NCBI GenBank assembly: GCA_964187785.1
Contig: OZ076409.1
Span: 6,946,001-7,010,000 of the forward strand
DNA length: 64,000 nucleotides
Reading direction: 5' to 3'
Source: Amphiscolops sp. MND2022
Lineage: Eukaryota
Shown: piece by piece, positions 2,477 to 55,904 of the stretch
Numbering within the stretch: the stretch's first letter is position 1
Layout: each line of letters begins with the position of its first letter
Made by a program: the position numbers and the translations under genes
Notes under the pieces: model-generated
The model's database searches: none
What the model saw: only the letters and a program-made list of their open reading frames with translations
What the model was told of the DNA's origin: nothing

Positions 2477-2772
2477 TTATTGCACATGACGAAGTCAATG
2501 TGCATTGCAGTCCAGCTAAGTAAGTTTTTTTCCACTATAGTCAACTTCATAATGAGCGCCTTTTAGAAAAAAGCCAAAACCCCAGAGAGTTTCGAACCTG
2601 CAGCCTCCCGATTGCACGGCATAAGTGTTGACCACTGTGCCATAGGGACGTTATTGAACAAAGTTGAACTATTGAAAATATACGCATACGATTAAAATAA
2701 TATATATATACGCATAATTAAAATAATCGATGTCTTCGTCATGTGTTGCGAAGCACCGCTTCGCCTCTGTGT
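2477..2772 (+). mobile_element. Helentron/Helitron2-like non-autonomous element, family I copy 1
   Basis: 5' CACATGACGAAG (2483) and 3' subterminal inverse CTTCGTCATGTG (2734), then hairpin GCGAAGC-ACC-GCTTCGC and tail CTCTGTGT; no TSD. Confidence 0.75.
2581..2647 (-). pseudogene. tRNA-derived cassette inside family I element
   Basis: Reverse strand CCCTATGGCACAGTGG...GGTTCGAAACTCTCTGGG with A-box-like and B-box-like motifs at tRNA spacing; imperfect cloverleaf. Confidence 0.65.
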
Positions 2773-3134
2773 ATTGAAGTTATGTTTTTCTTTCCAATCT
2801 GACTTTTATCCTCGAACAGGGTTCCATCAAAGTCAAATTTTGCATTTTGGAAAGGGTTAGTTCATATTTCGCTGCGAATTTTTCGAAAATCCAGAAAAAA
2901 ATTTCAGAAATTACTCGCATACTGCATCGGAAAACTGAAGTTACATAACATCTCAGCCAAGTATAAGGATAATTTTGTGATCATAAACAAAAATATTACT
3001 CTGTACACTATGGATGAGGCAATCCAGACAATTGTACAATTTAAACATCATATCAGGCACGAAATGAGAATCAATCAGTGACAAGTAATCCGTAATTTGC
3101 ACTGCATCATAACATTTATAAGAAACGCTTTCTA

Positions 3135-3905
3135 TTATTTCCGCGATAGCAGGAATATTATTATTTTCCGCCCACATAAATGGGGGAGAAAAATCATGAT
3201 CCGTGACGCGTTTTTTACTAATTCTGCCAAAACTCCACTTTATTTCCACTACATTTATGCACTTTGTTCACTTATGGTGGCTCAGTCAGGTTGTAGGTCC
3301 TGGGTTCGAACTGGTGGTTGAATTTTTTTTGTTTCCCAGCCAGTAGGTCGTGGGTTCGAACCTCTCCTTCGCCATACTTTTTTTTGCAATAAGCGTGTCG
3401 CGGAAAATATCCCGGTGCTTAGCGGGCGTCTTGTTGAAACCTCAATATGTCTACTTTTTTCAGTAAAATTCTTGTCGTGATACTGAAAAAATATTTTGTC
3501 CGACAAAAAATTATTTTGATATTTTGTCCGGCAGTGACTATAAGCGTGAGAATTAATTTTCTCAAGCTGCCGACGACATTTCGTTCTCGTGCGATGGAAC
3601 GAGCGAGTGGTAATTGTGCATTCGTACGCTGACGTCATTGAGATGAAGCGAGCGAATGTTTGTAATTATGCTTTCGTGCGCCGAGTTATTTAGATCAAGC
3701 GAATGAGTGTTAATTGGGAATGCGAAACTTCGTCTACGCTGAGTAGTTAAATTTGCTCTAGCCCGAGATTTAAAGGCGGTATAAACTGGTAGTGATTGAT
3801 TGTGCGCTAAATAATAATTAAACAAGGGTGTATTGGTATTCCAGATATGATTCTATTATTGAAAGATTAAAGCAGAATTAATAGTGTGCCCCAGAGGGGC
3901 CTATT
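3135..3905 (+). mobile_element. Helentron-like family F copy, interrupted by a family G element
   Basis: Homologous to 37495-37886, 55905-56477, 60169-60670 and 61485-61933; 3' TAAAGCAGAA then hairpin GCCCC-AGA-GGGGC and CTATTTT; internal degenerate ~50-bp repeats. Confidence 0.75.
3161..3435 (+). mobile_element. Helentron-like family G copy 1 with two tRNA B-box-like segments
   Basis: 5' TTATTTTCCGC and 3' GCGGAAAAT, hairpin CCCG-GTGCTTAG-CGGG, end CTTGTT; GGTGGCTCAGTC...GGGTTCGAAC twice (about 3277-3372). Confidence 0.8.
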
Positions 3906-3999
3906 TTCTGATAGGATATTAACAGCTAGTTAGCAATATGTAGTTAATCGACCAATTTTGCTCCTAATTATTATGTTCTGTGATTTTATGTTCGACCAA

Positions 4000-4424
4000 T
4001 TTTAGTCGGCGCTTCATGAAGTGAAACGCGCCTTTTATATGGGTTCTTCTTTTTCAATCCACAAGAATTGACCAAAATAGTTCTACAAAGTTACGAAATT
4101 TTATGGTGTCAAGTTGAACCATTTGGCCTAGCGAACAAAATCCTTTGTTTTTCCTTTGTTTCCGCGTTACCGGGCGAGACTAAAGGGTTCCCCTTCGCAG
4201 TTTTTTTCCGGAATTGAGACTTTTTCTGGAAAAAATTATTCCCCAAAGGGTCCCTCCTTCAATGTTTTGCAACAAAAGATATTGAAAAATCCGAAAGTGT
4301 CCCCTTCTAGCGCACCAAATCGGTCCAACTTTTGGGTTTTTCGTGTACTGTAAAAGAATTTTTCACACTTTGAAGTCCCTTTGCTATTTTTGAGCCCTAG
4401 GTATGGCGCCGACTCATTCCGTTC
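4000..4424 (+). mobile_element. Helentron-like family A copy (3' hairpin truncated)
   Basis: Starts TTTTAGTCGGCGC; GCGCCGACT at 4406; internal AAAGGGTCCC-type modules. Confidence 0.8.
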
Positions 4425-4685
4425 AAAAATGTTCTTTTCTTCGCAAAAATGACCTAAAATTGTTTAAAACTTCTGTGGCATTTTTTTCATTCGCAAGTCC
4501 GCCCTAAGAGCTATCAAGATCTAACAAAAGGCTAGCTAGTTTTGTTATACTTTCCCCAAAATTTCTCAAATTGCACATAAAAAAACACTGTATTGATCTT
4601 TGTTACTAAAATCATGAAAGATTCATTAAAAAAGTAGTGTACAAATACAATTTAAAAATATTGAGGTCGAAATTAAAAAGAACAT

Positions 4686-5063
4686 TCATCTAAATTGATA
4701 ATCCCTCCAACATTTTTTACCGTACTCGGGTGTATCCACTTCTCGTTCAAGTTGTTTGAGGAAAAAAGCTTTGGTCTTGTTCTTTATAGTTGCATATGAG
4801 TACGATTTAGTATTCAAGTTTTTCGGCAAGGTGTTCCATAGAGGGACGGTTTTCCTAAAAAAGCTATTTCTCATGAAAGTACTCTCACAGCGCCCAGTAT
4901 ATACAAGTATATCTGTTCTTTCAAGAAATCTGAGCTGAGCGGTTGATGGTTCATTTTCACCAATAAGAGCCGGGATCATTTTATTTTTCCATTTCCAAAA
5001 ATAAAGTACCGTTTTCATGTTGAGCAAATATCGTACCGGTAAGATTTTATACTGTATTTTCAT
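4686..5063 (-). pseudogene. C-terminus of a non-LTR retrotransposon (CR1/L2-type) ORF2
   Basis: Motif RNSFFRKTVPLWNTLP is typical of the end of CR1/L2-group ORF2; a diverged homologue lies at 26229-26413. Confidence 0.75.
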
Positions 5064-5779
5064 ATTTTACACATTAATGACTTTGGTGTAAAAGCAAAAG
5101 TATATACTCAGTTATAGCTTATTACAATTTCGTGTGCAGTGCAACTTTGCATAGAAAGAAGATATGCGATCGTGAAATAGTAAAATTTACATCCACCATG
5201 TTAGGATTTGTGAGGTTTTAATTCAGGACATACGTGATTAAGAGCCTTTTTTCGGCGACCTTGAAGACCCAATGGTCTTCATTGGCTCAATGATGGATGT
5301 TGGTTGCCTCAACTTTGCACAAGATGTGTGTCTGTGATTTTCGGGGCGTGAGTTGACGGGGCTTTCTTGTGCTGTCAGGATTTGGCACATTTTCTAGGAT
5401 TGGATTTGCAAGTCAGTAAGTATGTTTTGAAAAGATCCCTTTCATTGTGGCCATTGCAGTGTGCTCTTTATGTCACAACGTGCGACGTCTACCGACAGAG
5501 AAGAACAAGAAGAACTGAGAAGTGGAATAATTTAATGGAATTGCCAGATGATCAATCTGCGGAGATTCTTTACTACTAGTACCCCCCTGTGTGGACCCGG
5601 TCGCGTTCTGTGTCTGTCACTTCACCTATTTATACTGTCACTTTCATCTGCCAGGCCCATCGCCAACTCATTGCGCCGCCTCTCAAATGTCGCAATGATA
5701 ATGTCTAGCCCGTCTATTTCAATGCCCATTCAATTTCACACTACCTGAGCTCCTATCAAACAAGGTATTCAATGTACCT

Positions 5780-5935
5780 CCTCCTCCTCTACCATTTTTC
5801 ATCTTCCTTTTAATTACATAACCATTTCTCGGAATAGAAAACGAGCGAGGTCTGTTTCGAAACATTGTAAAAACATCACCCAGCTTGTATTTACTAGGAA
5901 AGTCTTTGGATAACAAAGCAACGATCCGTTATTAT
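5780..5935 (-). pseudogene. Decayed LINE apurinic-like endonuclease N-terminal fragment
   Basis: Across frameshifts: NNGSLLCYPK, SLVFYSEKWL and KNGRGGG in the order expected for NxRSL..K, TETWL and GRGGGV; same strand and upstream of the ORF2 end at 4686-5063. Confidence 0.45.
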
Positions 5936-6604
5936 TGTAAGTGCTGTAGTCAAAGTCTTCGACGTGTTTCTATTATTATTTGATGTCGATGCAAGCTCGA
6001 TTTATCCGCAATTGCTAGTTATAAAAGCATCATACACCTGCTTCTGAGGTTGCCGGATGTAATTTCCTTGTTTTATGTTCTCATTTCATCTTCGCTGTGT
6101 CGTAAAGTGCGGCTTTAACTGTTGTTGGTCTTTATGATTGTTTTTGCTAATTTCTCACTTTAGAACCCCGTCGCGTCTTTCAGGGGTCTTGAATTCAGGT
6201 ATGTTTTCCTTGTGAAATTGATTTTTCCTGTTGATTTTCATTTTTAAATATTCTGCGTAAGCTGACATGGTATAGAAGCCGTAAATGTGATTTTTTTCAA
6301 GACCTATTTATCGACCCACTTTGTTAGCCAAATGACTCGCGTTACTCCAAGGCTTTAGGTAGTTTATTTAATTCCGGTAGCAGCGAGACAGTGGTTTCAT
6401 TGAGGCGATTCTAAAGCTTTTTTGGCACGTTGAGGTTTCATATTTTTTGGAGACGTCTCATGTTGCCGTGACTTTGTTGAATGAAAGAGCAATACATGGA
6501 TTTTCAGTTTTTTGTCAGTTAGTTAATTCTCCCTAAATCAACCCAATGAGTGGTTTTATACATTTTAGACACGTCTAAATTCATTTTAGGAGTGATTTTC
6601 CCTG

Positions 6605-7501
6605 TTTTTTTAGCCGGCGCTTTTTGAATTTTCTGAAAAGAAGTACACGACACTTACAGTGGCAAGTTTTTTCAGTCACCTCAAAGCGTACACCTTTGTA
6701 AATTTTGGATTGGTCATAAATTTTGAAATTTTGCCCACTGGTTAACGCAGATTTCCAAGCCTGGTGACGCCTGGGCCTGAGAAGCAGCAGTACGAGGCTT
6801 CGAGTCCCGCACTAAAGTTTTTATGCTTGCAAACATAGAGTAAATACCAAAGCGTCCCCTTTGGGTATTTTCGGCACTATGCGACTCTGAATATATTTAC
6901 CGAAGCCCCCTTCAATTTTGAGCAGAAACGAAGCATAGAGGGACCACAAAGTTTTCCGGAAGTATTCGACATTTCGAAAACTTTTTTGAGGAAAAAATTT
7001 CCCATTTTGGTTTTTTGAAGAAAACCGTTTTCCGAGTCTCAAGGGTGACATCTTCGATTATTTTTAGGGCCTGTGGGATGGATGCCAAGTAAAAAGACCT
7101 CAAATCGAAAATTTTCTCTATACCTGTGGAAAAACCCGTTTTTGGACCTGTTCGACTTTTTTCGATAAAGTATTCATTTGGTTAAAGGGTACCCTGATCA
7201 CTTTTTAAAAAGTTGATGCCTTGAAAAAAGCGTTAAAAAGGGTTTCCTTTTGGGTTTTTTGGCACCATGAGAATTTTTCCGTAAAGAAAAATGTCGACTT
7301 TTTTTTCAAAATTGTGTTTTGTGATGTTACGAGTTAGGGCAAAAACATCTTATGGTTCTCCCTCGGGCGCTCTATTTTTTGGCGCTCTATATTTGATGAA
7401 TTTTCCTAAATAGTGGAATAATTTTGCATAATTTGTCTTTTTGCATGATTTGTCTTTTTGAAATTTGAGTGGTGCGCCGACTTGGGCCGTTCCCGGCTTG
7501 T
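6605..7501 (+). mobile_element. Helentron-like family A copy
   Basis: 5' TTTTAGCCGGCGC; 3' GCGCCGACTTGG-GCCG-TTCC-CGGC-TTGT; weak B-box-like TTCGAGTCCC near 6800. Confidence 0.8.
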
Positions 7502-8392
7502 CATGACAATACTCGTTTCCTGTTAAACCTTTTTCATGTAACTCTTGTTCTGAAATCAGCACAAAAATATCTGCGATAGTAGTTTTCAGAAATAAACACA
7601 CCTTAACTAACAACCTTTTGGGTTAGTGCTTAGAATTTACTATTATTACTCAGAAAACTAAACTATTATGCGAAAAACTTTCCAGTGTTTTCCATAAAAT
7701 CTGTGAGGAAAGTTTTTCGTAGTTGCTTACTACATCGCTTTGAAAAGGACGTATTTTGACAGTTGTTTGGCGAATTTTAGCGCTCCAACATGACTTGCGT
7801 AATTTCAATCTTAATCGTTTCTGAACTTTTTCCAACCCATAGTTGTGCGGATTGTGAACATTCATAACTCTTGATAAACTTTTGATAGTTTCAGTCTCAA
7901 TGTAGATCTAAAATCTGCGCAACGGTTGGCGGTCATTTGTATTCAATGCTAGAAGAAACGCTTTATCAGGAAAACGCTTTTACATTTCTGGAAAGTGATA
8001 ACAACTGTGTTTTTAGATGGTTTCTGAAAAAGCCTCAAAAAGAACATTTGTGGTTTTTGCTTCCAAAAGCTTTGATGTTGGCCGGCCGAGTCGAATTTTG
8101 TGGGTTGAAAGAAATGCTGATAAAAAGTAAATGGATTATTATTGTAGGAAGATTTGAAACGCCAGCCCGTGTTTTCATCAATTTCATGGATTCCTCCCTT
8201 CGCGTATTCTTTGAGAGCTCTTAATACATACATCTTTGTATCTACTTTTGTCTTCTTCCTTTTGTTTTCGGTTCAGCTGCTAGCAACGTGAATAAAAGTA
8301 ACATTCCATTTTTGCGACGCAAAAACGAATTTGTTCCGTCCTGTTTTTTGACCATCGACGTCTCAAAAGTCAAATACATTTACAGCGAAACG

Positions 8393-8995
8393 TTTCGGAG
8401 TCGGAAAAGTTTTCGTACTGCCATTCTACGCCATATTAGGGTCCTATATGCGCAATGACATCAAAATCTTATGACCGGGATCTGAGAAATTTAGCTAAAA
8501 TCAGTCCAAAAATTCTGAAGAAAATGCTTGACAATAAAGTACGTCGACTTTATTTTTAGTCGGATCTTTTGAAGAAAAGTGCCGACTCTTACAGTGTGTA
8601 GTTTTTAGCCACGTATGTATGGTCCTCTTTGTTTATTTGTTCAACAACTTTAATTACGGATGTCCAAAATATACTGGAAACGTCAGAACCTCTAAAACAT
8701 ACCAAGGATCTAACCTTGGCTATCTTTGTGTTTTTAACTTTTTTCGGCACTATGATACTTTTTTTGGCCGTAGGATCAAAATAGCGCTCGCATTTGTCTC
8801 AGCACGCTGTATATGAGCTTTTGAAACGGTTTCCGAGCGCTACAAGCATCCTTTGGGTGTTTCGAAACTTTTTTGTGAGTCTTTTTCAAAAAACATCCCA
8901 AGCATATTTTTTAAACTGCGCCGACTTATGCCGTGCCCCTTGTTCATCATTTTAATCCGTTTTCGACTCCTTTACCGCACATGCGGCTCGGGTTT
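8393..8995 (+). mobile_element. Helentron-like family H copy containing a nested family A copy (about 8554-8945)
   Basis: 5' GGAGTCGG and 3' CGACTCCTTTA-CCGCA-CA-TGCGG-CTCGGGTTT, as at 56586-57563; inner TTTTAGTCGG...GCGCCGACTT ends. Confidence 0.7.
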
Positions 8996-9264
8996 GAAGA
9001 GACATCAAAACTGGTGTGAACGATTAACGTTAAACGGCAGTCCAAGTGACGTGATGTTTCCGATTAGGTAAATTATTGCATTCGAATTGAGCATGTCGAG
9101 TTTTTGCCTCGTGTGATGTTGAATAATCAAATTTAGCCCGTATTGCGAAGTGTTTCCGGGACACTGAAAGCCACTTCCGATTTGCTGCCACTGCAAGGGC
9201 ATACCTAGCATGAGGTCCCACTGTTTTCACCTGATGTATTTCCGTCCGTTTCTATTGATGTTTC

Positions 9265-10198
9265 GCACCATGTGTTTTATCCCCCCCTGGTACACCTTGT
9301 TTCAAGTTTCTCCCCCAACACGAAAGAGCATTTTATTCTTGAAGAGAAATATTTCATTAATGAGACAATTTTATAAGAATGTAAATACATAGAGAATTGT
9401 CTCTACAGCTGTTTTGACACTTCAGGAAAAAAACCCTGATTTTTAGTCGGCGCATTTTAAGTTTTTTTTTCGTCAGACCACAGAATGTATGCGTAGTGGA
9501 CACTTTTTTTTACAGAACTAAACTACTGGACCGGCAAGCGGAAACACCTCTAAGTTAATGCAAAGGGTCCCCCCTTTCGTGTACTCAATTTTTAACGTAA
9601 GATACAAAACCGGACGGGACTATAGGGTCCCCCGTTGAATTTTTCACGGCACTGTGCAACTTTTTTTTCAAAATTTTTTTTGTCGCCAAAGGGTCTCCCT
9701 TCAAGTTTTTTGATATTTTGCAGCAAACTGAAGTTTCAAAAAGCCCAAAGTCTCCCTTTTCTAGTTTTTCAGCACTATGAGACTGTTTTTTTTTCGAAAA
9801 TTCGTTTTTTTTCGAAAATTTCTTTAATGTCTTCAAAGGGTCCCTCTTCAACATTTTTGATATTTTGCAACAAACTGGGTTTGAAAAAGTCCTTAGATAT
9901 AGCGCCGACTTTAGACGTTCCCGTCTTGTTTGAAATGTATCGTCCAATATGGCAAAAATTCACGCTTGGAGCAAGCCAAAATCGCATTGAAAGGCCCCTT
10001 TTTGAATGCAAATTTTCTTTGCAACGAAAAATTAGCAACTTTAAACTGTGAATTGGTGTAAAATATTGGATTATGTTGACATCAATTACTTTTTGGACCA
10101 AAATTTCTCGACCAAATGATGTCGACATAATGGTATTTGAACATTGTTTCTTATTTCCATCCCTCCGCGGCCGCTTGGTCGAATGAGAAACATGGTCC
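9265..10198 (+). mobile_element. GG-terminal MITE with 8-bp TSD (Merlin-like candidate), interrupted by family A
   Basis: Ends GCACCATGTG...AAACATGGTCC; TSD GATGTTTC (9257-9264, 10199-10206); homologous to 59428-59778. Confidence 0.7.
9440..9930 (+). mobile_element. Helentron-like family A copy (GACG/CGTC hairpin variant)
   Basis: TTTTTAGTCGGCGC ... GCGCCGACTTTA-GACG-TTCC-CGTC-TTGTT. Confidence 0.85.
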
Positions 10199-19901: not shown

Positions 19902-21230
19902 TTTTAGTTGGCGCTTTTCCTAAAAGAAAAGTAGTGCCCGACTATTACAGTGGTTAGTTTCTTTAGTCGGCGCTTTTTTAGTGAAAAGTGCCCGGCTATT
20001 AAAATGGCCAGTTTTTTTTTCGTCAGACCAAAGACCTCACTCTGTATGTACCACTTTTTACAGACTTTAATCGGTTTAGAGGAACCCAGTGGTTGCGGTT
20101 TTGAGTCCCTGCTTCAGCCAGAAACTTTTTCGTGCGTTTGCAAAACCGGACGAGACTGAAGGATCCCCCTTTCAGTTTTTTTCCGGCATTGTGAGACTTT
20201 GTAAAATTTTCAATGTCTGTAAAGGGTCCCTCTTTTAGCGCGCCAGTTCGGTCCAACTTTTGGGTTTTTTGGGTACTGTAGAAGAGAATGCTTGACACTC
20301 AGAAGTCCTTGTGCTATTTTTGAGCCTTAGATATGGCGCCGACTTGGGCCGTTCCCGGCTTGTTTATCTTTTTTAAGACCAACGAAGTGACAGATTTTAT
20401 AATGTGGCTTCCACTAACTGCCACATTAATGCAACTTCTGTTTCTGGTTTTTTAAGGATTTTTTGAGGCCTGCCAAGCAGAAGGATGTGGGTTCGAGAAG
20501 GAAGGGGAGCATGGCGTAGTGGTTAGAGCATTCGGCCTGTACTCGGGCGGTATCAGGTTCGAATCTCTCTCAACTCACCATTGTTGGTCCTTAAGCAAGT
20601 CCTTCATCCCTAGCTTAGTGGTATGGTCAATGACAAAAAATAACGCATTTGGCGGAGAAAAGCAAAACAAAAAGAGCAAAGATGAGCAGTCAGACCTTTG
20701 TGACCTTGAGCAAGTTACTTTGAAACCACAGCTTCAAGTCCACCATTACTTGACCACTTGGTTGTAAATATGGTACCATAGCTTGCTATGGGGAGATAGT
20801 ATCCGAAAGGGCGCCGACTTAGAAAAGCAGAACTGCTTATTCGGCGTCCACCCCGCGGTAATGGGGAAATTAACTTCTCTCTCGAGTCTCGCCCTTGACC
20901 AAAATTTTATTTCAGTGTTCTATTTTATTTCGGCTTTGTGAGACTTTTTTTGCATTTTTGGTCTCCAAAGGGTCCCCTTTCAATTTTTTCCATTTTGCAA
21001 AAAATGTATGTTCAAAAACTCTCAAAGAGCCTTTTTTACATTTTTGCGACTTACTTACACTATGCGACTTACCGGAGACTTCAAAAAAAATTTCGAATAA
21101 AAATTTCGGGAAGTGTTTCATTTTTTTCTCATGCGGGTACTGTAGAAGAGAATGAATGACACTTAGAAGTCCTTGTGCTATTTTTGAGCCTTAGATATGG
21201 CGCCGACTTATGCCGTTCCCGGCTTGTTTT
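19902..21230 (+). mobile_element. Family A copy hosting a second family A copy (19961-20365) and a SINE
   Basis: Two 5' ends (19902, 19961) and two 3' hairpin ends (20365, 21230); the body after 20365 matches the uninterrupted 5' body at 32245-32470. Confidence 0.8.
20498..20881 (+). mobile_element. tRNA-head SINE with CORE-like motif
   Basis: A box TGGCGTAGTGG, B box GGTTCGAATC; body TGTGACCTTGAGCAAGTTACTT; flanking TCGAG direct repeat; second copy at 58563-58942. Confidence 0.85.
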
Positions 21231-23395: not shown

Positions 23396-23408
23396 GCGCT
23401 GTGAAAGG

Positions 23409-24031
23409 GGAGCGGGACAAAACAGCCGATTTTAAACGGGACAAAACAGCCGATTTTAAAACAGTACAAAATCGCCGATTGGTAAGTGAAAATCGCCGAT
23501 TTTGTCAATGCGTGAGATTAGCAGTCAAGAAAATTATTATTATAACGTAGTCAGCTATGTTCACATACCCCTAGTGCCCTAAATGGAGGAGCGAAGCGGA
23601 GCGACGTGCCATATGGCCATGCCTCAATGTTGCTACTTGGCGAAGAGAGCGAAGCGACCGAGCCATACAACAAATATGAACCTCTTCAAATAAATCAAGT
23701 TCCATGCATATTGGCTGTAACAGCACTCATTTTGTTCCGTTTTGAAAATCGGCTGTTTTGTTGCGTTTTGAAAATCAGCTCTTTTGTCTCGTTTTGAAAA
23801 TCGGCTGTTTTGTTCCGTTTTGAAAATCAGCTCTTTTGTCTCGTTTTAAAAATCGGCTGTTTTGTCCCGTTTTGAAAATCGGCTGTTTTGTCCAGTTTTG
23901 AAAATCGGCTGTTTTGTCCAGTTTTGAAAATCGGCGGTTTTGTCCCGTTTTGAAAATCGACTGTTTTGTCTCGTTTTGAAAATCGGCTGTTTTGTCTCGT
24001 TTTGAAAATCGGCTGTTTCATCCCGCATTCC
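23409..24031. mobile_element. Foldback/Mutator-like element with arms built from 25-26-bp subrepeats
   Basis: Left CGGGACAAAACAGCCGATTTT units, right inverted units; candidate 9-bp TSD TGTGAAAGG/CGTAAAAGG. Confidence 0.6.
23730..24025. repeat. 26-bp minisatellite, about 11 units
   Basis: Consensus GAAAATCGGCTGTTTTGTCYCGTTTT. Confidence 0.95.
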
Positions 24032-28604: not shown

Positions 28605-28934
28605 ATTTTTGAAACGAAAAAAATATATGTAAATCGCAACCATGCCAGCTAACTCAACTACCATAATCACTAAATGCTTTTGCCCATGAACGGTTTCTAA
28701 TCGCTTTTTGTCTCTACTATTGATGATGTCTTAGAGCATTTGATGGCTATTTTTGGCTATTTGATCAAGATCTTTGAGCGGAGACCTTGACGTGTTTATC
28801 CGCTGCATTGATCAAAAATTCTGCCAACTTTTTGATCTAAAATTGATCCGCTAGAAATTTGGTTGAAGAACAATTTGATTTTTCTCAAACAGATCCGGTT
28901 TTACCTTTAGACGCGTGTTCTACTTTACCTTTAA

Positions 28935-29524
28935 CCTTAACTTGGCCAATGTGCCAAATTTGGCACATTTTGTTACTGCAAATTCTTAACGCACCAGCTG
29001 ATTGTATGGTAAAGCAAACCCTTTAATAAGAGTTTCAGACAATATTGCATAGCATTCGGCGCCTTTTCACGGAAAATTGACGTGATGTCTCAAAAACCCA
29101 GAAAATGACGCAAAAAAATCAAAAGAAAAATAAGTGCAGATTTTCCGTTTTCCCAGTTTTCGTTTGTGCCCCTTTTATCCCACTGGTATCAACATTGGGT
29201 CAAAGCGTCCCCAGCATGTTTTGAAACATGTTGAAAAGCAAGCAGAGACACGAGGCGTGCAAAGTTTTGGCGCAAAGTTCGGAGCCAGTGCGGCGAAGCC
29301 GCACGCCAGCGGAGAACTTCGCGCAAAAAACTTTGCGCGCAAGGGGCCCGCGCTAGCGGGCCCCAAGCCCAGCAGTTTAAAAATTGATTTGAAAGCCCCA
29401 ATGCTCCTCTTTCGAACGCTGTATAAATCGTTTGTCGGACTTGTATAGTTCAGAAGATATTGCGGTTTAAAGTTGAAGCACCTGATTTTTGGACGCAACA
29501 AGATTTTTCCTGGCCAACTTAAGG
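28935..29524 (+). mobile_element. piggyBac-type MITE
   Basis: TTAA|CCTTAACTTGGCCA...TGGCCAACTTAAGG|TTAA; near-identical to the three copies at 53004-55025. Confidence 0.85.
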
Positions 29525-30852
29525 TTAAGTATGAACATCAATTCTAAATCTGACAAACGCTTCCAATCTTTTTCGAATCCATTTCTAGAAATTTAGCTTT
29601 TTAGCAAGTAAAGCGCAACTAATTTATGTTGTTTCTTTCAAGCTAGGAGAAACCTCCATTCAATATCGAAACGGTAGCGAAAGTTCAGAAAATACAAAAC
29701 TATTTTCTCTATCATGGAAAATCAATACGATTCAGCAGTTGAAAGCAATTAAATTATCAACTGGGTCTTCAATCAATCAAGTTAAATTATCCTCATGTTT
29801 TTGTACTACTTGCTTTTCATTTTATTTTCTTGTATAAATTTGTTTCCGCACAATAGATAATTGCTTTTCTTCTAAGGGCAAAGAAAATTTTCTGCAGCCA
29901 TACAAAAAGCACTCACGCTGTGAAATTTTAGTCAGAAGTTTGCAATTTTTTGTTCCGGTTTAAATGCTTATTGTGCCGTTTTATTTTTGTGATTTCTACT
30001 GAAAGCGGCTGACATGTCAGCGAAGAAAACTGATGTGGATTTTCTAATGATTTTCAAAATAGACGCAATTCCCTCGAGTGGTAGGATATGCGGAAATTTC
30101 GTCAGAAACAACTCTTGGATTTTTAATTAGGCTCAAACTCGTCGAAAAAATAGATTACTAAATGTCTGTAAGAAATCCACAAGAAAATTGATTCTTCTAA
30201 ATGTTATTACAAATGTTATGGAATTATTTTTCTTAATTGATGCGTGAACTTTTCAGTTTTACGCAAAATATAGCCTTTTTAGTTGTTAATTGCTTGAAAT
30301 GTCTGGCTTTTATAGTTTATAGTGTAATCATTTTGTTCCTAATGCAATAGGATATAAAAATTTGCGTCGTGTTTGGCTCGGTTAATTTTCCGTACCTGCA
30401 ACAATTTTTCCACCGCAGAGATTCTGACGGATTTTTTTTTAGATTCAGTGGTAGGGTCCATAGTTGGATTCGATATGCGCAGCTCTTACGTTTTGAAATG
30501 ATACAATTTGTGGGAAGATTTCAAAAATTGCGCATTTTGGGCACAAAGACTGGGGCTTTGACCGGCTGTCCGTTTCTTTTTTTTGTTTTGCTTATGTTTA
30601 TAGTACGTTAACAAATTGGCAAGTTTTATGCCAGCGTGAAGTTATGAAATAAGTTATTCGTCTACCATTGTTTTCCATTTTTAGTAGTCCTATTTTTTCA
30701 GATATGCAAAAGGACACTATTGTTAAAATTTCATCAATTTTACAGTGCCAGAAAGTACCCGACGGGATACGTATAAATCTCGAAAATCATCACCTTTTCC
30801 CCTACTGGAAACGGCAAAACCATCTTTCTCAACCGGAAACCTCTCGAAAACG

Positions 30853-32244: not shown

Positions 32245-32470
32245 ATTTTTAGTCGGCGCTTTTCGTTGACTATAACAGTGACTTCTTAAGACCAACGAAG
32301 TGACAGATTTTATAAGCTTTATAAGCTGGCTTCCACTAACACTAACTGGCACACTGCTCTACTGGCACTTGGCATAGAGGTTAATTAGGCTTTTTGAGGT
32401 CTGCCGTGCAGAAGGACGTGGGTTCGAGTCTCGCCCTTGACCAAATTTTTTTGCATGTTTCAATTTATTT
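32245..32470 (+). mobile_element. Family A 5' fragment with tRNA-derived cassette (about 32364-32442)
   Basis: TTTTTAGTCGGCGC start; TGGCATAGAGG ... GGGTTCGAGTCTC. Confidence 0.7.
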
Positions 32471-35229: not shown

Positions 35230-35251
35230 CATTTTCAGTACTATCGTTTTG

Positions 35252-35539
35252 TTATTTTCCGCCCACATAAATGGGGGAGGAAAATCATGATCTGTGTTGC
35301 GTTTTTTTTTACAAATTCTGCCAAAACTCCATTTTATCTCCATTTCACTTAGTTACTTGACTGTTTTTTAGTTTCTTGACTATTTTACTAGTAACTATAT
35401 AATAGTCATGTAACTAAAATAGCGCCATGGCGCAGTTGGTAGTGCGTGTGCCTGTCAGTCACGAGGTCGTGGGTTCGAACCCGTGCTGGTGCGATACTTT
35501 TTAGCGGAAAATATCCCGGTGCTTAGCGGGCGTCTTGTT
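35252..35539 (+). mobile_element. Helentron-like family G copy 2
   Basis: Same ends as 3161-3435: TTATTTTCCGCCCACATAAATGGGGGAG ... GCGGAAAATATCCCGGTGCTTAGCGGGCGTCTTGTT. Confidence 0.85.
35422..35493 (+). pseudogene. Near full-length tRNA-like sequence (GTC at anticodon position) inside family G
   Basis: GCGCCA/TGGTGC acceptor-like pairing, D arm GCGC-AGTTGGTA-GTGC, loop CTGTCAG, GGGTTCGAACCC, T-run just downstream; T and anticodon stems imperfect. Confidence 0.7.
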
Positions 35540-35599
35540 ATTCAATCGTAAATCATAGAGGAGTATTCTAACTTTACTATGCTTTTATTATAGCACAAG

Positions 35600-42703: not shown

Positions 42704-43748
42704 TTACACTTGCGATAAGCAAGTGTTATGGGAAAGTGCGGGTGCTTTTTTTTCCGCGCGACAACTCTCTCGTTTCAGACCGCTAGTCGCATAATTCAGT
42801 CGACTTTTTTGGTCTAGCGGTAAGATGCTTGCTTTTCAACCCAGAGTGTCCGGGTTCGAACCCGTGCATATGCGCTAATTTTTTTTACAAAATTTTCGAA
42901 GCAGAAGATTCTCACTTTTTTTGACAATGAGACCCCCCTCCCCCTTTTCGGCTTTTTGAGACTTATTTTCGAAAATTTTTTAATGTCCCCAAGGGTCCTC
43001 CCTTCATTTTTTTGATATTTTGCAACAGAACGAACGTTAAAAAATTCAAAAGGGTCTCTTCTTTCAGATTTTTCGGCACTATGAGACTTGAAAATTCGCA
43101 TTTTTTTCGAAAATTTTTCGGTCTCCAAATGGTCCCCCTTCATTTTTTTGAAATATCGCAAAAGAATGGATGTTAAAAAATCTCAAAGAACCCCCCTTTC
43201 ACAGTTTTCGGCCTTGTGAGATTTTTCAAAAGTAATAATTTTTGTCTTAAAGTTAGGTTTTCTCAGGCCCAGCACGCTATATCCGATTTTTTTTCAAAGA
43301 CCGGTGTTTTTCATATGCGAATTTTTCATTTTTTTTTCATCGAAGTTCCCCCTCAATTTTTACCAAAAATGAAACGTTTTCCGACTCTAAAGGACTCGTC
43401 AAGGTTTTCAGCACTATGCGACTTCAAAAAAATTGCCGGTTACCTTCAAAAAATTTTTTGGTATTGCCGGTAACCTTCAAAAAATTGCCGTAACCTTCAA
43501 AAAAAATTTTCCTTCAATTTTCTGTTTGTTTTTAAGGTTTTCCGTTGAGGAAGATGGGTTTTTTTGCTGTTTTCAGTTGAGGAAGAATGGTTTTCGAGAC
43601 TTATGCCCATCCCTTCGGGTATTTTTTGGCGCTGTAAAATTGATGAAATTTTAACATACTCCTTTTACCCTTGGTTCTACGTATGATATTGCTTTTTTGG
43701 TTTTCAAAACTTCGCAAGTGTTTGCGAAGCGCGGCTTCGCCTCTGTGT
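42704..43748 (+). mobile_element. Helentron-like family I copy 2 carrying a tRNA cassette and family A internal modules
   Basis: 5' ACACTTGCGA and 3' TCGCAAGTGT, hairpin GCGAAGC-GCG-GCTTCGC, tail CTCTGTGT; AAGGGTCC/TTTTCGGCACT modules at 42930-43230. Confidence 0.8.
42810..42867 (+). pseudogene. tRNA-derived cassette
   Basis: A box TGGTCTAGCGG, B box GGTTCGAACCC at tRNA spacing. Confidence 0.7.
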
Positions 43749-44694: not shown

Positions 44695-45610
44695 TGAAAA
44701 AGAAAACGTCTCGAGTCGGCGCGCCCAGTTTAGGGCTCAAAAAGCGAAAAGTCTCTTGAATATGCTCAGAACCAACAAATTCTCATATATTGGCGATGGG
44801 GCGCTCACGAAAAATCCAGAGAAGCAACCTCTTGCTGGAATTATCCAAAAATATCAATTTGGTAAAAAAAGTTTATAAATTGAAAAAAATGTACTGAAAA
44901 AGTCGCACAGTGCCGGGAATCTCAAAAAGGGGACCCTTTAGGCTCGTAAAATACGCCTTTTCCTAATTTAAAACACGGGGAAGACGGAAGGAGCGACCTT
45001 TTGATAAAGTAAAAAATTATATCCGTTTCGTAAAAGTCGCACAGTGTATAAAAATCCCTTTGATCTTATAGATTTGTAAATATTTAAAAAAAATTGACCG
45101 CGGCCGGTTTCGAACCCCACCACCTTCTGCTTAGTAAGCACTCATCCTTACCACTAGGCCAAGTGGCGGTGTGAAACGTGGACTATTCTAAAAATGAACC
45201 ACTTAATTTCAGGTCTGTGTTCTGACTAGCAAGACGAGAACGTCTAAAATTGGCGCTATATCTATTGACTCAAAAAGCGCAAAACATTTTTTTTTGAAAA
45301 ATTTTTTCTTTCGGAAATTCAAAGGGGGGACCCTTTAGGCACGTCCGGTTTTGTAGGTCCCCTTAAAAAAGTAAGAAAAATGAAAGGGTGGACCCTTTGC
45401 ACTAAGTTTGCATTGGCCGGACTTGGCCTTATTGGTTTCAGGAGTTTCTCTGAAAAGTGGACCGATCAGTGTGAGGATTATAGTCTGAAGAAAAAAAAGG
45501 TCACTGTAAGAGTCGGGCATTTTTCCTTAAAAGGAAAAAGTGTCGACTAAAGAAACTGGCCACTGTAATAGCCTGACATATATTTTTTTTACAAAAAGCG
45601 CTGATTAATA
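44695..45610 (-). mobile_element. Nested pair of family A copies (inner 45228-45552)
   Basis: Inner ends CAAGACGAGAACGTC ... GTCGACTAAAG; outer 5' end 45553-45610 and body 44695-45227. Confidence 0.7.
45096..45170 (-). pseudogene. tRNA-derived cassette inside family A
   Basis: Reverse strand ACCGCCACTTGGCCTAGTGGTAAGG...GGTTCGAAACCGGCCGCGGT with A box, B box and ACCGC/GCGGT terminal pairing. Confidence 0.7.
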
Positions 45611-46570: not shown

Positions 46571-46777
46571 TCTCAAGTATTTACCCAACATGCGAGGTGG
46601 ATTAAATGATGAAACTGTCAAGCCCCTGTTTCTGTGTTATTCTCATCAGTCTGGCGGAAATATTCTGATCAGTCGATTGTACATGAATGTTAATTTTTTT
46701 TCTGCAGAGCGAGAAATGATAGTTTTTTAGACTGAAAGCTTCGCTCATCTTGTTAATGCGGAAAATCTCAACAAAGC

Positions 46778-49208: not shown

Positions 49209-49256
49209 TCCCTTTTACAGTGAAATAATTTCTCTCTTATGTCAGGCAGTCGTGAT

Positions 49257-49597: not shown

Positions 49598-49767
49598 GTT
49601 GCGATGGAACTTCTGTCAGTGTTTCTAATTTAGTTTGAAAAGCGAGTCAAAATATGAAATCAGCAAAAATATTTGGCTGGTTCACTCCAGAAATTGTTCA
49701 TTTTTTGACGCATATATATTCTCTACCCTATTGTTGCCCTATTTACCCCTTGCAGAGTTACATCCGG

Positions 49768-50531
49768 GAGCTTCCCATGATTCGGCTGGAGGCGGAATTT
49801 CGTCGTCGGAAGTTTCGCCGTGGGAAATTTCGTCGTATTAGCAATTCCATAAATTTCGTTATCATAATCATCGCCGTCAGATTTTTCTCGTATTGATCAG
49901 AATTAACAGCGTTCAAGAAAGGATTCCATTAAATAATTATTCAATTATTTAATTATCAAAATAACATCTTGAGAACAGGTTTAATTTTGACACAAAAATC
50001 CACTCCATTTATTATAGTGTGACATATACGCTAATATGCGACAACGTTTTATAGAACGTTATTACCAACGACGCAATTTCTAACGACCAAATTCAACGAC
50101 GAAATTTTGATTACGTACCAAATAACAGAAGAGCAAATAACAAAAACGAAATTAGTCCCATTTAGCATGAAAATGAAATTATTTTCATATAACATTCATA
50201 CTTTTTTCAGTGAATCTTTTGAATTGTGAATGCTGTTGACCACTAAACCTTTCTTGTAAACAATTTTATTTTTATGTCTAGTGAAACTAGTTTCATTTTT
50301 ATGTTATTTGGGAATCCACCGAAGAGTTGCATTGAAATGATAGGGCATATGCGACAACGTTTTATAGAACGTTATTACCGACGACGCAATTTCTGACGAC
50401 CAAATTTCCGACCACGAAATTTTGGTAATCGATTCGGCACTTTCCGTTAATTAATGCGTCAGTCCCACTGGGTGCTAACCCTAACCATGAGGTCGTTCTA
50501 TTTTTGCGATACCCCCCTATCAGGGAAGCTC
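49768..50531. mobile_element. Foldback-like element with inverted ~15-bp subrepeats
   Basis: Left AATTTCGTCGT units, right ACGAC/ACGA...AATTT units; outer inverted GAGCTTCCC..TGAT / ATCAGGGAAGCTC. Confidence 0.45.
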
Positions 50532-50949
50532 TTGCAGAGATATACCTGATGGGTGGATTTTGATGAAATGATAGGATAATCTCGCTTGTATTGTTTTTTC
50601 CCAGGGAAGGGAGGGGATTTGATTAGATTGGTACGTAGGCTGACTAAGAAAAATTTCCGCCTGGAACATTTGCGTCATTTCAACCAAGAACAACTGCACT
50701 TAACGTAAATGATTGTGATTTCTTGATGTGTGAAGGAAACGTTTCAAAGATTTCGCTTTCCGTCGAATGGTTGTCTTCACTGAAGTCACCTAATTGCCTT
50801 CATTTCGTGGTGTTTTCTGTAGCTCTTGAAGTTTACAATCCAGGTCTTTTTTGAGAAAAAGGTGAAGTGTCTTTTCGCTTCACAGTCACTTGATTTATTT
50901 GGAATCACAACACTTCACAATTCCATTTGAGGATGTTCGTTCGAGCAAA

Positions 50950-51432
50950 TTTTTAGTCGGCGCTTTTCTAGTGAAAAGTGCCCGACTCTTACAGTGGCTA
51001 GTTTTTTTCCTTTTTTTTCGTCAGACTACAATCTTACTCTGATTGGGCCACTTTTCTTACAATCGAAACTACTAAAACTACCATAAGGTCAAGTCCGGTC
51101 AGCGGAAATTAGTGCAAAAGGGTCCCTCTTTCATTTTTTACTATTTTAACGTAACCTACAAAACCGGACGAGACTAAAGGGTCCCCCTTTCGATTTTTTT
51201 CGGCATTGTGCGACTTTTTTTCGAGAATTTTTTATTGTCTCAAAAGAGTCCCCCTTTCGAGTTTTTTGATATTTTGCAACAGAATATATGTTAATAAAGC
51301 CCAAAGGGTCCCCCCTTTTACATTTTTCGGCACTAAGCGACATTTTCTGAAAGAAAAAAATTTTCAAAAAAGAATATTTTCCGCTTTTTGAGCCTTAGAT
51401 ATAGGGCCGACTTTAGACGTTTTCGTCTTGTT
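50950..51432 (+). mobile_element. Family A copy
   Basis: TTTTTAGTCGGCGCTTTTCTAGTGAAAAGTGCCCGACT (5' hairpin) ... GCCGACTTTAGACGTTTTCGTCTTGTT. Confidence 0.85.
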
Positions 51433-51636
51433 CTTATTACTATTTAAGGTGTTCGATCTTATAATAATTCTGATCGACGGTTGAAACAGTAGAGCGTCGT
51501 TGTTTATTGTTTTTTCTTGAACTCAGTTGATAGAATAGTATAGAATAATATAGAATAAAATAAAATAAATTATTTTGTGTTCCAAAGGGGGTACAAACTA
51601 CAACATGTATAAACCTACATCAGTTTCAGTTTTGGA

Positions 51637-52069
51637 CAGGGTTGGCCAAAATAAAACATGGGTGTTTTAAAACACGTTTTAAAACAGTTTTAAAACACTG
51701 TTTTATTTTGAATAAAATACAATCCCATCAAAGGTTTTTTATTTCATTTAGATGTAATCGTTGTAGACAGACAAGTAGGCGTCTAAAATGAGCAAAATAA
51801 TGAAATGTCAAGTGAAAATGAAAATCCATCTCGAAGGGTTACTGAAATTGCCACTCGAAATGGCATGTCTAGTCCATCCACTCTGATCTTCGCAACAGGC
51901 TTGGAGTTCAGAAAGTTGAAAAACTTACTTTTGTGATTCGATATTTGAATGATATTGAATAAGATCATTCTTTCAAGCTTGTTTTTCTGTTTTTGTCCGA
52001 GGGAATTTTAAAATGTTTTAAAACGTTTGTTTTGTATAAAATTAATTTAAAACAGAATGGCCAACGCTG
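51637..52069. mobile_element. hAT-type MITE
   Basis: TIR CAGGGTTGGCCA...TGGCCAACGCTG; exact TSD GTTTTGGA; GTTTTAAAAC subterminal repeats. Confidence 0.85.
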
Positions 52070-53003
52070 GTTTTGGAGTACCGTGATTTTACTGTGAAGA
52101 AACGAAGCAAATGTTTTCAGTATTTTCAAATCAGTTATATTCATCAGCTGGTCAAACTTAATGTCGTTTGGGTACTTATGATGTTTAAACTGCAGCTTCT
52201 TCCATTTTTCGTCAAGACTTTTTCGCGATTGCTGAGTCAAGTTGTGTGAGGTCGACAAAGTAGCAAATTCATACAGGATCGAATTGTGACTGGATTTTAT
52301 CTCGAATCGAAAGATGTGAAATTTACTTCAATATCACACCATGACATCTAGTGTCCTAAATGCAGATGCGAAGCGGCAGGTTTTGATTAAGGCCGGTTTT
52401 TTTGGGGGGGGGGGGTAGCGCAAAACGCCCCGTAAAAAGGAAGGCCTAGTCATACTACCAATTTTGAATGTCCATTTGAATTCATCTTAAGATTATCTTT
52501 TTCGATACCAAATAATTCGGTCCCAAATAATTCCACTCCAAACAATTTGGTTGCAATTTTCTATTCCAAATAATTCTCGACTCTTTCGGAAATAATTCCT
52601 TGTTTCGGAATTTTAGTGACAAACGATACTCGTCCGGATACAGTGCGTCTTTTCAAATGTTTCTCACTGGTAATAGAAAAGTTGGCCGGCCTTTCAGGAA
52701 AAGTTGAACTTGCTAAACAAAACTTCAATGAGAAAGTTTAAAGTTCCCTGAATGATGGAATGCCTATAAATTGTTAGGAATAAATACCTTTGTGATTCTT
52801 TTCTGGCTTTGATTCTATTTTTATTGACTCTTATTCTTTTAGTTTTTTACTTCGAATGAAACCGGAAAAATCATTAAAGCACTACAAAGTGAAAGCAAAT
52901 CGCTACTTGAGAGTCCGAAATTGCATTAAAGTGAACCTTAAAGAAAAAAGAATGATCACGAGGAAAATAAAATCGTTTGAAGTTCCATAGCCCGTGGCTT
53001 TAA

Positions 53004-55025
53004 CCTTAACTTGGCCAATGTGCCAAATTTGGCACATTTAGTTTCTGCAAATTCTTAACGCACCAGCTGATTGTATGGTAAAGCAAACCCTTTAATAAGA
53101 GTTTCAGACAATATTGCATAGCATTCGGCGCCTTTTCACGGAAAATTGACGTGATGTCTCCAAAATCCAGAAAATGAGGCGAAAAAATCAAAAGAAAAAT
53201 AAGTGCAGATTTTCCGTTTTCCCAGTTTTTGTTTGTGCCCTTTTTATCCCACTGGTATCAACATTGGGTCAAAGCGGCCCCAGCATGTTTTGAAACATGC
53301 TGAAAAGCAAGCAGAGACACGGCGCGTGCAAAGTTTTGGCGCAAAGTTCGGAGCCAGTGCGGCGAAGCCGCACGCCAGCGGAGAAGTTCGCGCAAAAAAC
53401 ATTGCACGCAAGGGGCCCGCGCTAGCGGGCCCCAAGCCCAGCAGTTTAAAAATTGATTTGAAAGCCCCAATGCTCCTCTTTCGAACGCTGCATAAATCGT
53501 TTGTCGGACTTGTATAGTTCAGGAGATATTGCGGTTTACAGTTGAAGCACCCGATTTTTGGATGGAACCAGATTTTTCCTGGCCAACTTAAGGTTAACAA
53601 GAAAAATACTAAATGTTTCAAATTGCGCTCAGGCTATCATTTTCAGTTGTTTTAAGTCCTGAAATGAGTTTTTGCATCATTTAGGCCAAGTTTTGAGCTT
53701 TTCATTTTCGTCGCATTAACCTTAACTTGGCCAATGTGCCAAATTTGGCACATTTAGTTTTTGCAAATTCTTAACGCACCAGCTGATTGTATGGTAAAGC
53801 AAACCCTTTAATAAGAGTTTCAGACAATATTGCATAGCATTCGGCGCCTTTTCACGGAAAATTGACGTGATGTCCCCAAAATCCAGAAAATGAGGCGAAA
53901 AAATCAAAAGAAAAATAAGTGCAGATTTTCCGTTTTCCCAGTTTTCGTTTGTGCCCTTTTTATCCCACTGGTATCAACATTGTGTCAAAGCGGCCCCAGC
54001 ATGTTTTGAAACATGCTGAAAAGCAAGCAGAGACACGGCGCGTGCAAAGTTTTGGCGCAAAGTTCGGAGCCAGTGCGGCGAAGCCGCACGCCAGCGGAGA
54101 AGTTCGCGCAAAAAACATTGCACTCAAGGGGCCCGCGCTAGCGGGCCCCAATCCCAGCAGTTTAAAAATTGATTTGAAAGCCCCAATGCTCCTCTTTCGA
54201 ACGCTGTATAAATCGTTTGTCGGACTTGTATAGTTCAGGAGATATTGCGGTTTACAGTTGAAGCACCCGATTTTTGGATGGAACCAGATTTTTCCTGGCC
54301 AACTTAAGGTTAACAAGAAAAATACTAAATGTTTCAAATTGCGCTCAGGCTATCATTTTCAGTTGTTTTAAGTCCTGAAATGAGTTTTTGCATCATTTAG
54401 GCCAAGTTTTGAGCTTTTCATTTTCGTCGCATTAACCTTAACTTGGCCAATGTGCCAAATTTGGCACATTTAGTTTTTGCAAATTCTTAACGCACCAGCT
54501 GATTGTATGGTAAAGCAAACCCTTTAATAAGAGTTTCAGACAATATTGCATAGCATTCGGCGCCTTTTCACGGAAAATTGACGTGATGTCCCCAAAATCC
54601 AGAAAATGAGGCGAAAAAATCAAAAGAAAAATAAGTGCAGATTTTCCGTTTTCCCAGTTTTCGTTTGTGCCCTTTTTATCCCACTGGTATCAACATTGTG
54701 TCAAAGCGGCCCCAGCATGTTTTGAAACATGCTGAAAAGCAAGCAGAGACACGGCGCGTGCAAAGTTTTGGCGCAAAGTTCGGAGCCAGTGCGGCGAAGC
54801 CGCACGCCAGCGGAGAAGTTCGCGCAAAAAACATTGCACGCAAGGGGCCCGCGCTAGCGGGCCCCAATCCCAGCAGTTTAAAAATTGATTTGAAAATCCC
54901 AATGCTCCTCTTTCGAACGCTGTATAAATCGTTTGTCGGACTTGTATAGTTCAGGAGATATTGCGATTTAAAGTTGAAGCACCCGATTTTTGGATGGAAC
55001 CAGATTTTTCCTGGCCAACTTAAGG
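53004..55025 (+). mobile_element. Tandem triplet of piggyBac-type MITE (53004-53593, 53720-54309, 54436-55025)
   Basis: Each copy is TTAA-flanked with TIRs; period 716 bp; the two ~118-bp spacers are identical. Confidence 0.9.
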
Positions 55026-55344
55026 TTAAACTGTCAACAATTATCATCAAAAGTCAAAAGTGTGCCGCTGAATTCCCTTTTGAGATGTAGTTGACATCCA
55101 TTGACGTGGAACTTCTTCGGTTCCTTCAGGAAATCGGAACTAATAGGACAAAATGAAGTGTGATCCTCATTCTTCTTGTGTGTGAATTTTTGTTGGGTTG
55201 TTGGGTCATAAGTCTTTGGATCAATTTTCTACTCGCCATGTCGTATTTGTTCATGACCAATTGCCATTTTTGGGCAGCGCTTTTCTAGTGAAAAGTGCCC
55301 GACTATTACAGTGGCTAGTTTTCTTTTTTCGTCAGACCACAGAC

Positions 55345-55808
55345 CAGGGTTCGGAAAAAAACAAGATATTGAAAAAATCGTGTTTAAAACGTTTAAAACA
55401 TTAAATTTTTTTGTTTAAAACGTTCAAAACTCTAGATCTATCACAAATACTTCTAACACTAAACAACCTAAAACCTGAGTTTACTCCAGTAAGCGAAGAC
55501 AAAACAAGTTTGTTGTCGATTTCGTGTTTTGTTGTGGACGAAACCCAGGGTGCTGAAAGCCCAGGGTGTGGACAAAACCTGCGGAACTTGGAATAAGAAC
55601 CAGAAGCGCATCGGCAATTTTCGTGTTGTCTTCCGCCAAATTGCACAAGATTACTTGAGTTTTTTAGCGATTTTAGGAACTTGAAAATACCTATTACCAA
55701 AATAAAAACAATTGAACAAAATGAAGATTTTTGTCGTGTTTAAAACTCTGTTTAAAACACGTTTAAAACGCGTTTAAAACACGGCATGTTTTAATTATGC
55801 GAACCCTG
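55345..55808 (-). mobile_element. hAT deletion derivative, family C
   Basis: CAGGGTTCGG...GCGAACCCTG; exact TSD CCACAGAC; inverse homologue of 28209-28604. Confidence 0.9.
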
Positions 55809-55904
55809 CCACAGACCTCATTCTTTTTAGTGCAGACTTTAATCGGTTTACGGGGAACCCAGCGGTCACGGGTTCGAGTCCCTGCTTTAGCCAGAAACTT
55901 GTTT

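Follow-up and report, generated by a model that had tools for sequence, protein, structure and literature searches.

tRNA-derived A- and B-box cassettes inside Helentron-type elements of Amphiscolops sp. MND2022 are probably relics of captured tRNA genes

The window analysed here is a 64,000-nucleotide stretch of the Amphiscolops sp. MND2022 genome (GenBank assembly GCA_964187785.1; contig OZ076409.1, designated C1 below, positions 6,946,001-7,010,000) from an assembly of 1.07 Gb in 1929 contigs. It has a G+C content of ~37%, contains almost no long open reading frames and is densely populated with repeats. Among these repeats are elements of three end families, I, G and A, that carry short tRNA-like segments, here called cassettes, with sequences resembling the A and B boxes of an RNA polymerase III (Pol III) promoter (Table 1). 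The carriers have the structure of non-autonomous Helentron-type transposons, and the cassettes are integral parts of them that were amplified together with the elements and probably derive from captured tRNA genes.

The carriers have a subterminal inverted repeat (subTIR) at the 5′ terminus, and the partner repeat is found ~20-30 nt short of the 3′ end; the pair is kept in the G and A family alignments. In I-1, the 5′ subTIR CACATGACGAAG pairs with the 3′ subTIR CTTCGTCATGTG, which is followed by the hairpin GCGAAGC-ACC-GCTTCGC and the tail CTCTGTG. I-2 has I-type termini (ACACTTGCGA and TCGCAAGTGT), the hairpin GCGAAGC-GCG-GCTTCGC and the tail CTCTGTG around an interior that consists of A-type repeat modules. 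G-2 combines the subTIRs ATTTTCCGC and GCGGAAAAT with an internal palindrome, the cassette, a 3′ hairpin (CCCG..CGGG) and the tail CGTCTTGTT, and the ends of G-1 match those of G-2. The family A subTIR pair is AGTCGGCGCC and GGCGCCGACT. DNA folds gave I-1 a 7-bp stem at the 3′ end, whose end is 8 nt short of the last folded base. For I-2, the fold of minimum energy joins the left arm of the hairpin to the 3′ subTIR region instead, and the 7-bp palindrome was read from the sequence. The 3′ stems in G and A are shorter (4-5 bp). Folds also show a small inverted repeat beside the 5′ subTIR. Repeated modules of ~140 bp occupy the centre of A and I-2, where Tandem Repeats Finder gave only a 21-bp repeat in I-2.

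All 13 I-1 copies examined have the arrangement T-run, element, T, without target duplication, and junctions in the G and A alignments are likewise T-rich. In two I-1 copies (L090, L096) the element splits a module T-run, and the unsplit T-run at window positions 43000-43030 provides a paralogous empty site. Similar sequence of 15-25 nt on both flanks sets two other copies (L093, L094) apart from the remaining 11; this probably reflects insertion into pre-existing short repeats, with a long duplication as the alternative. Copies arranged head to tail were found at two G loci (L005, L014), at one I-2 locus (L063) and in the window at 19960-21229. The A-like element at 44697..45229(-) comes after another A-like 3′ end at ~45230, and four fetched genomic copies of the X block sit within A-type elements. 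With subTIRs, a 3′ hairpin, T-run insertion without duplication, central repeats and tandem arrays all present, it is well supported that the carriers are non-autonomous rolling-circle elements of the Helentron type, similar to those known as HINE or DINE-1. A preliminary description of this stretch, made before the present analysis, had already called them Helentron-like.

Table 1. Carrier elements, cassettes and related features of the window. Genomic copies are scored copies and represent lower bounds; first-look candidates are an unscored preliminary count.
Feature	Position	Strand	Description
I-1 element	2477..2772	+	296 bp; at least 40 genomic copies, 95-98% identity; 1791 first-look candidates
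I-1 cassette	2577..2650	-	antisense to element; A box TGGCACAGTGG, B box GGTTCGAAAC, T4 2576-2579, T6 2567-2572
G-1 element, subfamily of G	3158..3436	+	278 bp; at least 39 full-length copies, 88-93%; 5029 first-look candidates
G-1 units	3275..3385	+	unit a 3275-3322 with T8 3323-3330; unit b 3334-3377 with T8 3378-3385
Family A element, X type	19960..20365	+	partial cassette 20061-20130
X-type partial cassette	20061-20130	+	B-box half, decayed; block 87.5% identical to 55833-55904
Family A element, A-1 type, 5′-truncated	20366..21229	+	abuts 3′ end of element 19960..20365
Split A-1 cassette	20440-20497 and 20882-20905	+	interrupted by SINE 20498-20881
tRNA-derived SINE	20498..20881	+	384 bp; head with A and B boxes, body ~300 bp
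Family A (A-1 type), 5′ part	32246..32459	+	214 bp; at least 39 copies, 83-93%; 3474 first-look candidates; 5′ end TAGTCGGCGC
A-1 cassette	32364-32445	+	T7 at 32446-32452; internal T5 32384-32388 (T6 in family majority)
G-2 element	35248..35540	+	~290 bp; at least 39 full-length copies, 81-92%; 4321 first-look candidates
G-2 cassette	35422..35493	+	near-complete tRNA-like sequence; T5 at 35498-35502
I-2 element	42704..43748	+	1046 bp; at least 39 copies, 92-97%; 2478 first-look candidates
I-2 cassette	42805..42886	+	A box TGGTCTAGCGG, B box GGTTCGAACC, T8 42879-42886
Old, diverged A-like element with cassette A-2	44697..45229	-	241 first-look candidates; matches at 70-88%; 3′ end putative
A-2 cassette	45171-45094	-	followed by T8 45093-45086
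X block, fragment of family A subfamily	55823..55903	+	81 bp; 3′ half of cassette only, B box GGTTCGAGTC; at least 39 copies, 87-97%; 2727 first-look candidates
G-3, family G element	63496..63845	+	G termini, different interior without tRNA-like cassette

The box signal was measured against randomized sequence. The string GGTTCGA occurs 19 times in the window, compared with 6.6 ± 2.7 times in shuffles, and 0 of 100 shuffles attained 19. Box patterns were relaxed versions of the textbook A- and B-box consensus, with the A box 30-60 nt upstream of the B box. Six composites at this tRNA-like spacing were found, at 2589-2642(-), 20512-20565, 32370-32430, 35428-35481, 42810-42862 and 45107-45161(-), whereas 200 first-order Markov resamples gave a mean of 0.045 and a maximum of 1. 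These two excesses rule out chance resemblance. Four or more T residues follow within 40 nt in five of the six composites. The sixth, at 20512-20565, is the head of a tRNA-derived short interspersed element (SINE) and has no T-run after the head. The five that end in a T-run are all inside the Helentron-type elements, and by motif each of these window units is a candidate type 2 Pol III promoter, with an A box, a B box 30-60 nt further on and oligo-T.

Searches for whole tRNAs gave a more restricted picture. No tRNA was reported in the window by ARAGORN at default settings, and no match was obtained with Rfam at gathering thresholds. At permissive thresholds the G-2 cassette (35422-35493) was the only place to match the Rfam tRNA model, with 28.1 bits against a gathering score of 29; ARAGORN reported it at relaxed thresholds only, and block shuffles yielded none there. 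When 20 genomic copies of this cassette were compared with the Rfam model, one scored above the gathering score (30.7 bits), five reached 22-24 bits and 14 had no match at E ≤ 10. The anticodon position differs among aligned genomic G copies, and no compensatory changes between subfamilies were seen by eye in the T-arm of the G cassette. A search with the same model at E ≤ 10 found no match in the I-1 cassette (12 genomic copies and the window copy), G-1, A-2, X1 or the SINE head, and these cassettes therefore appear to be box-and-terminator relics as opposed to cloverleaf tRNAs. Functional tRNA genes were considered and rejected, given the subthreshold best score, the variable anticodon and the empty default ARAGORN result. 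Immediately upstream of the G-2 cassette there is a conserved palindrome of ~70 nt (window 35345-35420, and the same place in genomic copies L002-L030), which scored weakly against models of microRNA precursors, at 22-33 bits and far under their thresholds.

The preliminary description had placed tRNA-like segments inside the elements at eight named positions. Content of this kind was confirmed at all eight, although only 35422-35493 is tRNA-like as a whole, and three of the segments had to be redrawn. The one at 3277-3372 breaks down into a pair of incomplete units, each followed by a separate T8, and the second of them, unit b, has its homologue in the 3′ half of the G-2 cassette. That at ~20465-20497 is the left piece of a cassette that is split by the 384-bp tRNA-derived SINE (20498-20881) and resumes at 20882. 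The third, at ~55850-55893, belongs to an 81-bp block (55823-55903) that has the 3′ half only, and an extra copy is present at 20061-20130. In I-2, a T6 (42805-42810) replaces the 5′ acceptor strand. The SINE interrupts the A-1 cassette precisely at the B box and is bordered by TCGAG on either side. It fits the description of a tRNA-derived SINE except for a clear tail repeat; a second copy is located at 58557-58940, and the two are 90% identical over 374-376 bp.

Genomic copies were then aligned by family (30 copies each for G and A, 19 for I-2 and 12 for I-1; G-1 gave at least 39 full-length matches). The position of the cassette was constant in every family alignment and in all copies examined, and the cassettes are therefore not independent SINE insertions. 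A separate insertion in each copy, with its own target-site duplication, had been put forward in the preliminary description as the alternative that would undo the idea of capture, and it is ruled out by these alignments. The cassettes are located 100-175 nt inside the elements, one of them in antisense orientation, and are directly followed by a T-run. As had been described, they have no SINE body or tail, and the alignments show that target-site duplications are missing as well. Genome-wide spread of the cassettes by the elements was also borne out, with at least 12-40 scored copies per family and thousands of first-look candidates.

Pairwise comparison of the cassettes revealed how they are related. 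I-2 and A-2 agree at 51/65 positions (z 11.4), A-1 and A-2 at 53/72 (z 8.6), and G-2 and unit b of G-1 at 30/38 aligned positions (z 9.5), while the I-1 and I-2 cassettes have no specific similarity (z 1.1). The X cassette matches the 3′ half of the I-2 cassette. A slot alignment showed that the A-1, A-2, X1/X2 and I-2 cassettes are homologous and occupy one slot, in the order left module, cassette, central repeats. I-2 is probably a chimera of I-type ends and an A-type interior, which carries the A-lineage block. These similarities and the shared slot suggest about three acquisitions, not one per family, which would have been followed by retention, decay and exchange between families. The first would have filled the family A slot, next to the left module and ahead of the central repeats, and given rise to the A-1, A-2 and X variants and to the same block in I-2. 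The second would have taken place in family G, where G-2 is complete and G-1 has two partial units, and the third in I-1, antisense to the element. The repeated capture proposed earlier is thus retained as about three events, with at least three distinct cassette lineages, and not as one event for each family. Likewise, the statement that cassettes differ in sequence and orientation applies between these lineages, one of which is antisense, and does not apply among A-1, A-2, X and I-2, which form a single lineage.

Retention of the boxes varies among families. A B box was present in 25/29 genomic copies of G, 25/29 of A, 19/19 of I-2 and 12/12 of I-1, and A and B boxes at 30-60 nt spacing were present together in 12/29, 24/29, 18/19 and 12/12, respectively. 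Along the G alignment, conservation was 0.88-0.93 in cassette bins and 0.86-0.94 in other bins; the corresponding values for A were 0.94-0.98 and 0.93-0.99. Over the whole element, identity to the majority sequence is 99.7% for I-1 copies and 98.7% for I-2 copies. The expectation that A and B boxes would be better conserved than the flanking element sequence was not upheld, as the bins are flat in G and A. Such a profile is one half of the second outcome that, according to the preliminary description, would refute its idea, the other half being a lack of Pol III and TFIIIC occupancy. The flat profile therefore argues that there is no box-specific constraint after insertion, and the boxes of I-1 and I-2 are intact because these families are young.

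These data bear on whether the cassettes are functional modules that bind TFIIIC and/or drive Pol III and are kept by family-level selection. Such modules may benefit the element, through open chromatin, strand exposure or escape from silencing, or may provide the host with boundary sites. At least three lineages carry boxes at canonical spacing together with a terminator, the terminator is retained even in the antisense I-1 cassette, and the boxes of the youngest families, I-1 and I-2, are intact. Set against this are the even conservation of boxes and flanks and the youth of I-1 and I-2, which accounts for their intactness. The A-1 cassette also has an internal T-run (T5, or T6 in the family majority), and in I-2 a T6 stands at the expected transcript start. 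From what is known of Pol III termination, such runs would cut transcripts short, and binding of TFIIIC could nevertheless persist. In addition, relatives without a cassette have been amplified too: G-3 is one example, and of the ~17 copies of family A in the window only ~4-5 contain a cassette. We consider it unlikely that selection of this kind maintains the cassettes, and, judged from motifs and conservation, a Pol III or TFIIIC function is somewhat disfavoured.

The explanation we prefer, to which we assign a probability of roughly three in four, is that the carriers are HINE/DINE-1-like elements and that the cassettes are passenger relics of tRNA genes, captured as DNA in about three acquisitions and dispensable for transposition. 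According to this proposal, tRNA genes or close derivatives would have been taken up, as DNA, into the variable interior of a founder element. The relic would keep its A box, its B box at tRNA spacing and its oligo-T terminator, and would be copied with the element to hundreds or thousands of sites; unneeded for transposition, it would decay after insertion like the remaining element. Since tRNA genes end in T-runs, insertion into T-runs should frequently place the elements next to such genes. Bypass of an element end or formation of a chimera, as is known for Helitron-type rolling-circle elements, could then enclose a tRNA gene together with its terminator. We infer both this route and an origin from tRNA genes as opposed to SINE heads. 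A terminator is found directly after every cassette, in both orientations, and gene capture therefore fits better than capture of SINE heads.

The competing proposal for the origin is that SINEs were the donors, each lineage having begun with one tRNA-derived SINE, or a simple SINE head, that inserted into a founder element. tRNA-derived SINEs are present in the genome, one of them being nested in a family A cassette of the window, and the I-1 cassette agrees with the SINE head at 48/71 positions (z 7.0); around the B box, the I-1 family majority is identical to the SINE head over 17 nt. We nevertheless regard this origin as very improbable, since no SINE body or tail comes after any cassette, the T-run found there instead is absent from the SINE head, and no duplication is seen beside the cassettes in the G and A alignments.

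Several points weigh against the view that the cassettes are dispensable relics of captured tRNA genes. Four of the five box-bearing cassettes are not recognized as tRNA by Rfam (E ≤ 10) or ARAGORN; for these, boxes, spacing, terminator and pairwise similarity are what suggest a tRNA origin. The family analyses cover the best-scoring 12-40 genomic copies only, and a flat conservation profile may be compatible with selection acting on master copies. A genome search with the Rfam tRNA model, in which 63 of ~118,000 first-look candidates were scored, turned up no donor tRNA. Finally, no autonomous Helentron with these termini was found, one 10-kb Rep/helicase locus having been examined.

With respect to donors, 16 genuine tRNA genes were fetched, all of Lys, Arg or Pro type and clustered. 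They were compared with the cassettes by eye, and one Arg gene resembles the G-2 cassette only at the level usual between tRNAs. The best tRNA matches of the genome lie in clusters such as C7:5.23-5.34 Mb. One locus (L115; C7:5267100-5270000) is a tandem array of tRNA-Lys(TTT) genes with a 193-bp unit, 14 units in 2.9 kb; the units are 90-98% identical, several have changed anticodons, and the array has no similarity to the window.

With respect to an autonomous partner, the Helitron_like_N model gave 152 genome matches above cut-off, many of them in open frames of 2300-2600 aa. The locus examined (L097; C1:23997876-24007872) contains an intact 2377-aa frame at 2172-9305(-), with a Helitron-type Rep at aa 1038-1135 and a PIF1 helicase at aa 1778-1950. 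A match to GIY-YIG at the C terminus is weak, at 21.1 bits against a cut-off of 22.6, and no APE endonuclease was seen in this frame. It has no DNA similarity to the window. Near-identical frames of ~2375 aa are numerous on C1 at 73-76 Mb.

Helitron-type elements are well known to capture host sequence in the form of protein-coding fragments. Clear examples of tRNA genes captured by such elements are hard to find in the searchable literature, and open-access full text yielded no account of Helentrons or HINEs with tRNA-like modules. The account of HINEs by Thomas, Vadnagara & Pritham (2014; PMC4067079) lists in its main text a 5′-terminal subTIR, a second subTIR 38-60 bp before the 3′ end, a 3′ palindrome, an inverted repeat by the 5′ subTIR, TT or T-rich insertion sites, T strings at the boundaries, central tandem repeats and a lack of coding capacity. 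All of these hallmarks are common to the present elements, although their 3′ subTIR, at ~20-30 nt from the end, is somewhat nearer than in that account. A further difference is that the present elements bear tRNA-derived A/B-box units with terminators: the word "tRNA" does not occur in the main text of PMC4067079, and a B-box string is absent from 10 of its supplementary files. In the main text of Yang & Barbash (2008; PMC2374699), recently inserted DINE-1 copies are described as having no sites for Pol III binding and no structures related to tRNA. Cg_HINE of the Pacific oyster, as presented in the main text of Vojvoda Zeljko et al. (2020; PMC7492417), is similar in its left and right modules around short satellite-like arrays, its oligo-T insertion sites, the lack of a target-site duplication and its tandem copies. 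It differs in that "tRNA" and "SINE" are each absent from that main text; the supplement consists of array sequences only, in which B-box matches fall in satellite monomers and are uninformative. A cluster of tRNA-Cys genes that overlaps annotated Helitrons in Arabidopsis (PMC10701932) also ties a rolling-circle family to tRNA gene sequence in tandem copies. Those genes are local and mostly expressed, and three Helitron-finding programs confirmed no element, whereas the present elements are well defined and dispersed in thousands, with decayed tRNA parts.

tRNA-derived SINEs have in common with the present elements the tRNA-derived A and B boxes and a very high copy number. In the elements described here, however, the tRNA part is internal, is once antisense, is directly followed by a terminator and is enclosed by DNA-transposon ends, and the cassettes have neither a tail of the type found in long interspersed elements (LINEs) nor a target-site duplication. 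Extra-TFIIIC (ETC) sites and tRNA- or SINE-derived boundary elements are dispersed B-box sites at which TFIIIC can bind without productive transcription. This is the state that would be expected for I-2 and A-1, given their internal T-runs, and the resemblance is one of motif only.

Other repeats were noted in the course of the analysis. A 716-bp tandem repeat at window 52993-55029 has three units that are 98-99% identical, and a fourth, dispersed copy at 28929-29528 is 96% identical. A tandem array with a period of ~26 bp is present at 23412-24025, with an inverted partner at 23412-23480. One genomic I-1 copy is flanked by a near-perfect hairpin of ~94 nt (L088, 360-453), which scored 54.9 bits with the MIR5649 model against a threshold of 100 and is probably an inverted duplication or a foldback element.

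In this genome, tRNA-derived units are carried in hundreds to thousands of copies by at least four families, which are young or of middle age. For annotation, this means that the elements will inflate counts of tRNA pseudogenes, the first look for tRNAs in the genome having returned ~118,000 rough candidates, and that tools which seek a tRNA-related region will probably misclassify them as SINEs. The oligo-T target preference is suggested to bring the elements next to tRNA terminators, and the families offer a concrete case in which to test whether TFIIIC or Pol III sites can be spread by a DNA transposon. A broader proposal, distinctly unlikely on the sequence evidence, is that Helentron-type elements of this lineage serve as vehicles for such sites and that a tRNA-derived unit gives its lineage an advantage in amplification. 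If this were the case, the advantage would come either from TFIIIC-bound sites at which chromatin is open or strands are exposed, or from escape from silencing; thousands of ETC-like or small-RNA-producing sites would have been seeded genome-wide, and some of them may become chromatin boundaries or the heads of new SINE-like RNAs.

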